Sequence record: PQ471515.1
DNA length: 64,000 nucleotides
Source: Escherichia phage Turkey3
Strand: one strand, 5' to 3'
The translations under genes were made by a program, and so were the position numbers. Of the stretch, positions 49,834-51,745 are shown piece after piece (positions within the stretch are counted from its first letter, which is position 1; the number at the start of each line of letters is the position of its first letter). Under the pieces are notes generated by a model. It was given only the letters and a program-made list of their open reading frames with translations. It searched no databases and was not told where the DNA came from.

Positions 49834-50724
49834 TTAATATGTCTTATGAACTGCATTGCCCTTTGCGTTAATAGTTCCACCAAAAAATGTATACACCGTA
49901 GATGTTTTACCATCACTAATCACTTCTATTCCTATCGCAAATGATACCGAAGGAACACTCACAGTACTGATCATAACCCATGAATTAGTGTTAGTATCAT
50001 AATATCCAACATTACCACCCCTGAATAAATAAATCCTTTCATTAAAATAACACAAATACGGATTGGATGATCCTGTCGTTGATACCGGCACTGAACCAGC
50101 GTACTTAGTAAAGATTTCAGTACTTACATTGTATATGTATAAGTCATTACCATAAACAATACTAATAGAATTTGTTTTTTCATTATACGCAACACATCCA
50201 CAATACATTACCCAAGAATAACCACTCGGCATAGTCTTCGTAAGTATTACTTTCGTATCTAAGTCAATTATATAAAATTTATTTACATTACCACCAAATA
50301 CATACATCTTAGACCCAACTAAACATGATGCAATATTGTATACACTGCTAACCGTACTAGAACCCCATGAGTACCTCGTTCCGTCGGTTCCATATACACT
50401 CATTAATTCACTCGGTCCAGAACCACCAAATATATACATCCTACCATTATAGTACTCCATTGTTCCTGCGTTGTGCGTGGAATCTATGGTAACTAGTGTA
50501 CTAAAATCATTCAGTACTGGATTATACCTGTAAATCATTAAACCATCAATATTTCCATCAGTGGTAGTACCTCGTGTACAGTATATGTAAGTTTGATCTG
50601 TACACGTCAACGGATAACGCATAGGTGATGGTATTGTGCCAGTAGGTTCTAATAGTTCATATATCCCACTAAATCCATTATTGATTGTATTCCCATAACT
50701 CAACATCCTTCCAAATGGTAACAT
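49834..50724 (-). CDS. MLPF-family protein, Kelch-like beta-propeller
   Basis: MLPFGRMLSYGN; repeated aromatic-FGG motifs (YIFGGSG, YVFGGNV). Confidence 0.75.
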   Translation of the reverse strand: MLPFGRMLSYGNTINNGFSGIYELLEPTGTIPSPMRYPLTCTDQTYIYCTRGTTTDGNIDGLMIYRYNPVLNDFSTLVTIDSTHNAGTMEYYNGRMYIFGGSGPSELMSVYGTDGTRYSWGSSTVSSVYNIASCLVGSKMYVFGGNVNKFYIIDLDTKVILTKTMPSGYSWVMYCGCVAYNEKTNSISIVYGNDLYIYNVSTEIFTKYAGSVPVSTTGSSNPYLCYFNERIYLFRGGNVGYYDTNTNSWVMISTVSVPSVSFAIGIEVISDGKTSTVYTFFGGTINAKGNAVHKTY

Positions 50725-50797
50725 CTCTCTCTCCTAAAAAGAATTATAATGTATTTAATCAAAAAAGCCCAGCACTTATTCAGTACTGAGCAGATTA

Positions 50798-51745
50798 TTA
50801 TGTGAACTTATACATAACAGTGCTTCTATCGTTCGCACCACCACCACCAAAAAATGAATACGCTTCACGTTTTCCAGCAATATAACCGTACCATGTGTAG
50901 TAGGCAGAAGAAGTGTTAGTTCTTATACGTGTCCATGTCCCATTAGGTTCACGTTTAGTGACAAATGTACCCAAAATATAATATAATGTTCCATCGACAA
51001 TTATGAATCCTGCACCAGACGAAGTAATAGGAGAAAAAGATGGAATTACTTGCGTGAACGCATTTGTTGACGGATCATAATTATACATTGTACTACCTAT
51101 TACTAGATATACTAACCCTTCATAAAAAATAACACTAGGGGATTCAACGTTTAGTGTTGGGGTAGTTATTCCAGATCTAACAGTTCTCCATACTTTGGTA
51201 ATATAATTATATGCAACAATAACTTCCTTTACACTACTAGACTGACCACCAAAATAAAAAATTTCATTCCCAATACATACTCCTGCATGGTTATACCTCG
51301 CAGGTGGTCTTCCACTATCATTTGAAATAATTTCTATTGAATTAGTACCAACCTTGTGACGAAAGAATTGAGAAGATGCGTTATTGCTTGAGTTCGCCCC
51401 ACCAAAACCATATATATATCCATCAGGTGTATAAACCAATGGGGTAGATCTTAAATTTCTCAAATTACTAGAAGGAATCTGATAAAACGTATTATCTGAC
51501 GCATTATAATAAAAGAAATCATTTAAGTAAGTAGATCCAGTTCCAGTTATACCTCCTCCAGTTCCAGTTATACCTCCATAAAAATATACATATGGAAACT
51601 CTTCTACATTTGTTGAACATGATGACGTATAATTCCTTCCGGGTGGATTATACCCTGTACTATTGAATGTTATCTGTTCTGATATTCCCAAAAATACGCT
51701 AGGAGCAATATTCCCATAATCAAACATTCTTACAAAAGGTAACAT
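50798..51745 (-). CDS. MLPF-family protein, Kelch-like beta-propeller
   Basis: MLPFVRMFDYGN; YIYGFGGANS, IFYFGGQSS, YSFFGGGGAND. Confidence 0.75.
   Translation of the reverse strand: MLPFVRMFDYGNIAPSVFLGISEQITFNSTGYNPPGRNYTSSCSTNVEEFPYVYFYGGITGTGGGITGTGSTYLNDFFYYNASDNTFYQIPSSNLRNLRSTPLVYTPDGYIYGFGGANSSNNASSQFFRHKVGTNSIEIISNDSGRPPARYNHAGVCIGNEIFYFGGQSSSVKEVIVAYNYITKVWRTVRSGITTPTLNVESPSVIFYEGLVYLVIGSTMYNYDPSTNAFTQVIPSFSPITSSGAGFIIVDGTLYYILGTFVTKREPNGTWTRIRTNTSSAYYTWYGYIAGKREAYSFFGGGGANDRSTVMYKFT

Follow-up and report, generated by a model that had tools for sequence, protein, structure and literature searches.

Two adjacent genes of Escherichia phage Turkey3 (PQ471515.1), here called Kelch-A and Kelch-B, encode six-bladed Kelch beta-propellers, as judged by their repeat motifs, Pfam profiles and predicted structures, and both begin with the 12-residue leader carried by the RCC1-type proteins encoded around them. 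The genes lie in the 64-kb stretch that we analysed (the window; about 35% G+C), in which many small plus-strand open reading frames (ORFs) give way to a long series of minus-strand genes, each about 1.1 kb in length. The leader, which we call the tag, stands on proteins with several unrelated folds, is conserved as a peptide, is confined to one phage clade in the collections that we searched, and occurs on homologs found in the virions of two relatives. We propose that the tag docks exchangeable binding heads on the virion. The features on which the argument rests are the following.

49834–50724, minus strand: Kelch-A gene, 296 amino acids (aa); leader MLPFGRMLSYGN, then a predicted six-bladed Kelch propeller (ORF, Pfam, AlphaFold2, Foldseek)
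50689–50724, minus strand: Kelch-A leader, codons 1–12 (MLPFGRMLSYGN), from the sequence; residues 9–16 have a predicted local distance difference test score (pLDDT) below 50
50798–51745, minus strand: Kelch-B gene, 315 aa; leader MLPFVRMFDYGN, then a predicted six-bladed Kelch propeller (ORF, Pfam, AlphaFold2, Foldseek)
51710–51745, minus strand: Kelch-B leader, codons 1–12 (MLPFVRMFDYGN), 100% identical over 12–15 residues to the leaders of 48715–49824 and 42927–44072
39890–60192, minus strand: array of 17 leader-bearing genes (Pfam, PHROG, pattern, direct sequence)

Fold of the two proteins

The original prediction, made from the sequence alone, called the two proteins Kelch-like rather than RCC1-like on the strength of repeated aromatic and GG motifs spaced 45–50 aa apart. 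All of the motifs that it quoted are present in the two minus-strand ORFs. The spacing that we measured is 42–56 aa, and there are six repeats per protein, where two had been listed for Kelch-A and three for Kelch-B. The blade motifs of Kelch-A are at 46 (YIYCTRG), 97 (YIFGGSG), 141 (YVFGGNV), 188 (SIVYGN), 232 (YLFRGG) and 278 (YTFFGG), 44–51 aa apart. Those of Kelch-B are at 54 (YFYGG), 110 (YIYGFGGANS), 162 (IFYFGGQSS), 212 (VYLVIG), 254 (LYYILG) and 296 (YSFFGGGGAND), 42–56 aa apart. Four of the six blades of each protein keep the GG doublet; the degenerate ones read YCTRG and VYGN in Kelch-A, and LVIG and YILG in Kelch-B. The pattern aromatic-x-aromatic-GG occurs twice in each Kelch protein and in none of the other 15 paralogs, and the Kelch-type motif pattern is well beyond chance.

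We accepted a Pfam family when the score was at or above its curated gathering cut-off. Kelch-B passes for six Kelch-type families: Kelch_KLHDC2_KLHL20_DRC7 (PF24681; 59.1 bits against a cut-off of 50, E=5e-16), Beta-prop_ATRN-LZTR1 (PF24981; 52.6 against 50), and Kelch_6, Kelch_2, Kelch_1 and Kelch_4 (44.9 against 25.3 for PF13964, 33 against 21.3 for PF07646, 32.3 against 20.1 for PF01344 and 31.1 against 21.6 for PF13418). Kelch-A is more divergent, and the two proteins are 25% identical by BLASTP. It passes marginally for Kelch_2 (PF07646; 24.6 against 21.3), stays under the cut-off of 50 for PF24681 (42.1, E=8e-11) and matches phrog_12615 with E=3e-15. A profile built from both Kelch proteins and a few relatives retrieved 145 proteins, about 20 of them tag-bearing phage proteins and the rest ordinary bacterial or eukaryotic Kelch proteins; it matches bona fide leaderless Kelch proteins with E down to about 1e-40.

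The AlphaFold2 models of both proteins are all-beta. The Kelch-B model has a pLDDT of 87.7, a predicted template modelling (pTM) score of 0.88 and 24 strands by DSSP, and the Kelch-A model a pLDDT of 78.5, a pTM of 0.80 and 23 strands; these strand counts are consistent with six four-stranded blades. In a Foldseek search of the PDB, the top 50 matches of both models were all Kelch-type propellers, natural or designed, led by 9mez (LZTR1), 9d8p (KLHDC10), 5yy8 (NS1-BP) and Keap1 (E between 1e-11 and 3e-14, TM at most 0.76). The match of Kelch-B to LZTR1 in 9mez has a TM of 0.76 and E=3e-14. Further matches include KLHDC3, KLHL2/3/12, plant specifier proteins and the designed SAKe proteins. Keap1, the KLHL proteins, LZTR1 and bacterial NanM share the six-bladed Kelch fold with our models at TM 0.6–0.76 and 12–21% identity. 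In the viral structure library BFVD, the best match of Kelch-B is the Kelch-like protein CBB_550 of Pectobacterium phage vB_PcaM_CBB (CBB; E=2e-17), and structural proteins from the virions of CBB and phiKZ-like phages are among the further matches. The alignments given to AlphaFold2 were built from Kelch matches, which biases the models towards a Kelch fold; the independent Pfam result agrees with them.

The neighbouring genes belong to the RCC1-like family of seven-bladed propellers. Neither Kelch protein matched an RCC1-type Pfam family at E<=1, and in the same scan five of the six neighbouring array genes did, four of them above threshold for RCC1 or RCC1_2. Profiles and structures thus both assign the pair to Kelch, in place of no Kelch or propeller assignment at all, and for this reason the Kelch-rather-than-RCC1 reading stands. 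Pfam found no BTB, BACK or F-box domain in either protein, and about 20–40 residues precede the first blade. Membership of the NanM/mutarotase family was ruled out (PF24996, 18.8 against 45; NF010730, 17.7 and 18.1 against 416). A search of solved structures for a phage virion member of the RCC1, Kelch or Gly-rich families returned eukaryotic RCC1/UVR8 and Kelch entries only.

The tag and its cargoes

We defined the tag family operationally as M-L-P-F-x-(R/I/Q)-(M/L/I)-x-x-Y-G-N at residue 1, and the Kelch proteins fit it with MLPF(V/G)RM(FD/LS)YGN. Seventeen genes of the window start with MLPFxR(M/L)xx(Y/F)GN, one of them with L at position 6; the pattern found 16, and the other is 39890–41014, which starts MLPFVLLFDYGN. 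The window tags fall into the subtypes V(R/L)(M/L)FD (nine genes), ARM(V/I)K (six) and GRML(K/S) (two). In both Kelch models the tag is placed outside the predicted fold: residues 1–10 have a pLDDT of 54–59, the first strand starts from residue 22, and the Kelch-B leader, with a mean pLDDT of 59, lies off the propeller.

The original prediction also held that the leader of the RCC1-type proteins is attached here to a second type of propeller. BLASTP bears this out, aligning the Kelch proteins with their RCC1 paralogs over residues 1 to about 12–17 (58–100% identity), apart from one weak alignment of Kelch-B with 51756–52886 (121 residues, 30.6% identity, E=2e-4). The claim was in fact too modest, as the leader is also found on LamG-like, Gly-rich and other bodies and on fusions of RCC1 with Kelch.

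To follow the tag further, we searched IMG/VR with a degenerate DNA pattern for M-L-P-F-x-x-(second-base T)-x-x-Y-G-N. It returned 24 stretches, nearly all on jumbo-phage contigs of 348–378 kb, and by these sequences the tag is confined to one clade, the Rak2-like jumbo phages. Translation of these loci, to which we added phAPEC6, CBB, pEa_SNUABM_12 and a 101-kb metagenome contig, gave at least 92 different tagged proteins of 150 aa or more, from 13 genomes of Rak2-like jumbo phages. Their cargoes are RCC1, Kelch, RCC1+Kelch fusions (667–676 aa), Gly-rich proteins, three clusters that match Laminin_G_3 (a ConA-like lectin family), and several families of 170–260 aa with no Pfam match. In the fusions, an RCC1-like part is followed by a Kelch part in one tagged polypeptide (L010, 140–2161, plus strand, 673 aa; L014, 667 aa; L024, 676 aa; contigs of 355–371 kb). 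The Laminin_G_3/ConA-like proteins with the tag are at L028, 15197–18101 (CBB_548 and CBB_551, both annotated as structural in CBB), and L018, 2054, plus strand.

Across the 92 proteins, residues 1–4 and 10–12 of the tag are essentially completely conserved, residues 6–7 are strongly conserved, and conservation is lost past about residue 15; this figure is partly circular because the search patterns fixed part of the tag. The codons are more informative. Pro3 is CCA in 44 cases and CCT in 43, Tyr10 is TAC in 58 and TAT in 35, and Gly11 is GGG in 51, GGA in 29 and GGT in nine, with the residues essentially invariant. Because the codons of Pro3, Tyr10, Gly11 and Arg6 vary synonymously while the residues stay fixed, the tag is constrained as protein. 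The variable positions of the tag tend towards uniformity per genome, as at L029 (892–19227), where 12 of the 16 tags are MLPFVRMLEYGN. Partner co-evolution, gene conversion or a mosaic origin are possible sources of this uniformity.

Unrelated major capsid proteins of family PF09950 start with the tag-like MLPFTPLDGYGN (L005, 8262, plus strand; L007, L011 and L013; IMG/VR contigs of 21–72 kb). We considered an evolutionary link between this start and the tag, but with about 0.5 such families expected by a rough estimate, the likeness is probably chance. Our literature searches, which had incomplete coverage, found no description of a short N-terminal tag common to RCC1, Kelch, LamG and other proteins that tracks virion presence.

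Tagged proteins in the virions of relatives

The virion proteome of phAPEC6 includes gp003, gp005, gp006, gp007, gp009, gp010, gp549 and gp551, mostly named 'DNA condensation protein' and with 1–5 unique peptides each (PMC7247149). We translated gp003, gp005, gp006, gp007, gp009 and gp010 from the GenBank record, and all six begin with MLPF. In CBB, the cluster CBB_536–554 holds nine tagged genes, seven of which (536, 537, 548, 549, 551, 552 and 553) are annotated 'structural protein'; these seven include the Kelch protein CBB_552 and two LamG proteins. The CBB paper reports the identification of CBB_536, 537, 551 and 552 by mass spectrometry, and it counts the RCC1-like GAP32_001 among the structural proteins of the virion. 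Two independent phages thus supply at least 13 different tagged proteins that were detected in virions or are annotated as structural. We consider it probable that the tag mediates this association with the virion.

The tagged proteins of the window have a net charge of about zero, and N, S, T, G and Y make up 42–55% of their residues against 29% in the other ORFs of the window. A composition of this kind, uncharged and rich in N, S, T, G and Y, is typical of phage surface and fibre proteins. Judged from sequence, it is ill-suited to DNA condensation. Database annotation nevertheless makes these proteins DNA or chromosome condensation factors, for which the sole argument is a name transferred from eukaryotic RCC1. 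The Kelch pair is not RCC1-like at all, its net charge is near zero, the same tag is carried by lectin-type folds, and the sources cited give no experimental support and call the function unknown. We regard a condensation role as extremely improbable.

We also considered that the tagged proteins might work inside the host cell as takeover factors. They could be substrate adaptors or inhibitors, comparable to the Kelch proteins of poxviruses and eukaryotes or to propeller inhibitors of the BLIP-II type, with the tag read by a protease or chaperone and with adventitious detection in virions. The fold matches are to protein-binding Kelch domains (Keap1, KLHL, LZTR1, KLHDC), and the clade encodes Clp-type proteases. 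Low virion peptide counts and the lack of a structural label on CBB_550 and CBB_554 point the same way. However, eukaryotic and poxvirus BTB-Kelch proteins have BTB and BACK domains, whereas each protein here consists of the tag and a propeller with no BTB, BACK or F-box partner domain. The number of tagged proteins found with virions in two phages also argues against this idea, as does a promoter-like motif common to the array and a structural gene (described below), and we consider takeover factors quite unlikely.

A proposed docking peptide with exchangeable heads

Our proposal is that the Kelch pair belongs to a large, late-expressed, virion-associated family of Rak2-like jumbo phages, and that what would define this family is not a fold but the tag, MLPF-x-(R/I/Q)-(M/L/I)-hydrophobic-x-YGN, with a short, often Pro-containing linker. 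The tag would be a docking or incorporation peptide through which every cargo attaches at the same site of the virion; the likeliest candidates for this site are the 'hairy' fibres of the capsid and tail sheath, or the anchors of these fibres. The cargo, whether RCC1, Kelch, LamG or another, would act as a head that binds a ligand and has no enzymatic activity. A mixed set of rapidly exchangeable, low-copy adhesins would thus be displayed, which widens or tunes the adsorption of the phage to different host surfaces, and the Kelch pair would add a second propeller geometry to this set. Three of these steps, namely that the tag causes incorporation, that the proteins sit at the surface and that they bind molecules of the host surface, we infer. 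The full statement, in which the tag docks interchangeable binding heads on the virion and the Kelch proteins are accessory adhesins, seems to us evenly poised between right and wrong. More speculative is a version in which the tag is a universal display plug, carried by at least five unrelated folds and by 17 genes here, that fits one socket shared by the hairy appendages of capsid and tail and gives each virion a combinatorial, horizontally exchangeable library of lectin-like adhesins. We offer this version tentatively and would lean slightly against it.

phAPEC6, the 121Q-type phages and CBB all bear unusual hair-like fibres on the tail sheath and capsid. In phiKZ, an unrelated jumbo phage, a transposon screen showed that adsorption to some wild strains depends on gp298, a Kelch/NanM-like protein of low abundance in the virion. 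Like the Kelch pair, gp298 is a Kelch propeller of a jumbo phage, and its role in adsorption to a subset of strains is experimental; it differs in coming from an unrelated lineage, in having no MLPF tag and in not being part of a paralog array. For the tag itself, the closest model is in K1-5/K1E/SP6, KP32, Menlow and K64-1/RaK2, where conserved N-terminal peptides of 7–11 residues dock secondary receptor-binding proteins on branching domains; this interaction is reported to have been validated experimentally (PMC13352976). As with the tag, a short conserved N-terminus stands there on unrelated bodies, and several binding proteins share one attachment site. The cargoes differ, being trimeric depolymerase spikes on T4gp10-like branching domains in those phages and propellers or lectin folds here, for which docking would hold by analogy.

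The strongest alternative to this is an internal location. The tag could be a T4-like capsid-targeting signal, and the tagged proteins could be internal, ejected proteins that are loaded in the prohead core and injected to neutralise host defence or other host proteins. T4 IPI, IPII, IPIII and Alt have the same architecture: their bodies are hypervariable and are packaged in the virion, and each has a conserved N-terminal signal some 10 residues long. Phages of this clade have a gene for a T4-type prohead core protease, the head of phAPEC6 contains an inner body for which the authors of that work suggested RCC1-like proteins as candidates, and the mass-spectrometry data on virions fit an internal location equally well. 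Leader residues 4–10 are weakly predicted as a short helix in one model, and in some genera tag residues 7–9 read (L/I)-x-E and so resemble the T4 gp21 cleavage site, whose consensus is (L/I)-x-E. In T4, the prohead protease cleaves the capsid-targeting signal at a conserved Glu, and the cargoes are small basic proteins or enzymes. The tagged proteins differ in both respects. We rejected a conserved prohead-protease cleavage site in the leader: among the 92 tags position 9 is Glu in 28, in the window it is K, D or S, and the leaders of the window have no other conserved Glu within 30 residues. The cargoes are lectin- or adhesin-like (LamG/ConA, Kelch, RCC1), near-zero in charge and rich in N, S, T, G and Y, not basic DNA-associated proteins or enzymes, and gp298 of phiKZ, the phage Kelch virion protein that has been studied by experiment, acts in adsorption. 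On balance we consider an internal role unlikely.

Several observations weigh against a docking peptide with surface adhesins. The tagged Kelch proteins CBB_550 and CBB_554 do not have a 'structural' label in the CBB record, and the tagged proteins found in phAPEC6 virions may be co-purifying contaminants because their counts are low, at 1–5 unique peptides. The virion evidence comes from homologs in the relatives phAPEC6 and CBB. The docking partner of the tag is hypothetical, and the structural module lies outside the window. Propellers of 30–40 kDa cannot themselves form hairs of about 120 nm, and the known receptor-binding proteins with docking peptides are trimeric fibres or spikes, whereas ours are monomeric propellers. 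Finally, the computed evidence fits a location outside or inside the virion alike.

Array layout and transcription signals

The array consists of 13 RCC1-type genes (by Pfam or direct sequence), the two Kelch genes, one Gly-rich gene and one gene of 449 aa. The Gly-rich gene, 46695–47432, has no Pfam match and belongs to phrog_4474, and 45274–46623 is RCC1-like by PHROG only. A plus-strand gene at 41092–41742 (216 aa, phrog_34359) splits the array between the tagged genes 39890–41014 and 41775–42911. Around the Kelch pair, in the order of transcription, the features are as follows.

51756–52886, minus strand: upstream RCC1-type paralog with the shared leader (Pfam RCC1_2, 29.2 against a cut-off of 22); promoter-like motif at 52908–52921
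51746–51755, minus strand: 10-nt gap (GGAGAGAAAT) between the stop of 51756–52886 and the start of Kelch-B; a Shine-Dalgarno sequence only, no promoter or terminator
50757–50791, minus strand: intrinsic-terminator-like hairpin (GCTCAGTACTGAATAAGTGCTGGGC, then a T-run; hairpin 50767–50791) from the terminator scan, predicted to end the unit of 51756–52886 and Kelch-B
50743–50756, minus strand: promoter-like motif AAATACATTATAAT upstream of Kelch-A, a match to the array motif AAATAYWKTATAAW
50731–50735, minus strand: Shine-Dalgarno sequence AGGAG of Kelch-A, read from the sequence
48715–49824, minus strand: downstream RCC1-type paralog with the shared leader, 9 nt after Kelch-A (Pfam RCC1_2, 35.8 against 22); terminator at 48682–48700

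Because the 10-nt gap has no promoter or terminator, 51756–52886, as first gene, and Kelch-B are probably co-transcribed. Kelch-A and 48715–49824 are probably co-transcribed as well, from the motif at 50743–50756. The gene 48715–49824 corresponds to the virion-detected gp009 of phAPEC6: both products have 369 aa and are close over the N-terminal residues that we compared.

Nearly the same block stands upstream of many array genes: a G+C-rich hairpin and its T-run come first, then the motif AAATAYWKTATAAW, then AGGAG. A terminator scan of the window gave 22 sites against 8.5 expected, most of them being the hairpin that recurs between array genes. A fixed pattern with a 5-nt loop matched none of these hairpins because their loops vary from 3 to 8 nt. 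The motif AAATAYWKTATAAW has ten matches in the window against 0.2 expected, and nine of them precede leader genes. The tenth, at 6511–6524 on the minus strand, lies upstream of 5331–6488 (minus strand), which has no leader, belongs to phrog_10468 ('virion structural protein') and is the sole other minus-strand gene of at least 150 aa in the window. This suggests that AAATAYWKTATAAW marks late or structural transcription units. Because array genes share the motif with the virion structural gene 5331–6488, we infer that expression of the array would be late and of structural type. phAPEC6 has a gene for a late sigma factor, and T4-like TATAAATA/TAAATA elements accompany many of its structural genes. 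Sigma-70 promoters were rejected as an account of the signals, with 77 sites against 95 expected and a spacing of just 8 nt between TTGATT and TATAAT.

The blocks raise the question of whether the conserved 5' end acts at the level of nucleic acid, as a recombination or gene-conversion cassette or as a translation-initiation element, in which case the peptide itself would be without function. With BLASTN, relatives match in the leader and the upstream blocks only, many array genes have almost the same terminator, promoter motif and Shine-Dalgarno sequence ahead of them, and the variable tag positions are homogenised per genome, all of which would fit. Yet the tag residues are essentially invariant across genera while their codons vary synonymously, and the tag persists where the upstream block is missing, as in Kelch-B with its 10-nt gap. 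The conserved block more probably gives rise to recombination than owes its conservation to it, and we judge it very unlikely that the nucleic acid is what matters here.

A near-identical palindromic hairpin (GCCAGTAC...GTACTGGC) occurs at 41750–41768, 45249–45267, 47478–47496, 48682–48700, 56585–56607, 57836–57854 and 59015–59037, and some of its copies score as terminators on the opposite strand too. This intergenic repeat could also be a recombination site.

The Gly-rich gene 46695–47432 (minus strand, 245 aa) has a long shadow ORF in another frame, at 46736–47044 (minus strand; VVQSLVVVLV...). In the GenBank record of phAPEC6 the shadow ORF is annotated as gp004 (L002, 7716–8018), and the true gene of 244 aa, at 7325–8059, is missing. 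In the same record, the start of gp002 is 36 codons too early, and leader ORFs at 3, 2434 and 6063 are unannotated.

Relatives of the phage and of the Kelch pair

Positions 20000–44000 of the window match the Escherichia jumbo phages fEgEco12, CMSTMSU, WPEC5 and others at 98–99% identity, and because of this we place the phage, by sequence, as an Asteriusvirus-like E. coli jumbo phage of the Rak2-like 121Q/PBECO4/phAPEC6 group. The array is mosaic between phages that are otherwise 98–99% identical, as would be expected of host-range modules.

TBLASTN searches of 50,697 phage records gave no match for Kelch-B, and for Kelch-A gave three Erwinia phages only, at 25–26% identity. Since the isolate phages thus offered nothing close, we took the relatives of both proteins from a metagenome protein collection. 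The closest relative of Kelch-B there is P0004 (62% identity), whose gene stands beside a second Kelch gene within an array of at least 14 RCC1 genes on another phage contig, and for this reason the Kelch gene pair is, as far as these sequences go, a recurring but rare cassette. P0005, which is 100% identical to Kelch-A, was deposited as 'hypothetical protein VWI13_01685 [Escherichia coli O157]'. Its contig is 357,661 bp long, and the bacterial assembly therefore appears to contain the complete genome of a jumbo phage.

The tagged Kelch proteins known from isolates are more distant. CBB_550, CBB_552 and CBB_554 of CBB, a Mimasvirus, likewise consist of an MLPF...YGN tag and a single Kelch propeller, in 265–285 aa. 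P0024, which has the CBB_550 sequence, is 22–24% identical to Kelch-B (25% in a local BLASTP) and about 19% identical to Kelch-A. CBB infects another host genus and has no RCC1 paralogs, whereas the Kelch genes of the window sit inside an RCC1 array. Tagged Kelch genes beside tagged RCC1 ('DNA condensation') genes are also found in Erwinia phage pEa_SNUABM_12 (Eneladusvirus), as the 'putative kelch-like protein' QOI71400.1, which is 26% identical to Kelch-A, and in Escherichia phage BF17 (P0025).

Significance

Tagged Kelch proteins have already been deposited as 'kelch-like' in CBB, pEa_SNUABM_12, XbC2 and BF17, so the pair is not new in kind. Kelch-A and Kelch-B are divergent additions to an already annotated class of phage Kelch-like proteins, and the result for the genes themselves is modest.

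The result for the arrays is broader. They fill about 20 kb of each Asteriusvirus genome and go by the annotations 'regulator of chromosome condensation' or 'DNA condensation protein'. What unites the array is a short N-terminal tag and not the RCC1 fold. Together, the tag, the Kelch and lectin cargoes and the detection in virions recast these arrays as modular, virion-borne binding proteins, which gives testable predictions on host range and on the 'hairy' appendages and points to systematic mis-annotation. The 12-residue tag may also serve as a handle to load engineered cargo on jumbo phages. If the tag were indeed a universal plug, it would explain both the hairs and the mis-named 'DNA condensation' arrays, and would offer a short tag for the display of foreign proteins.

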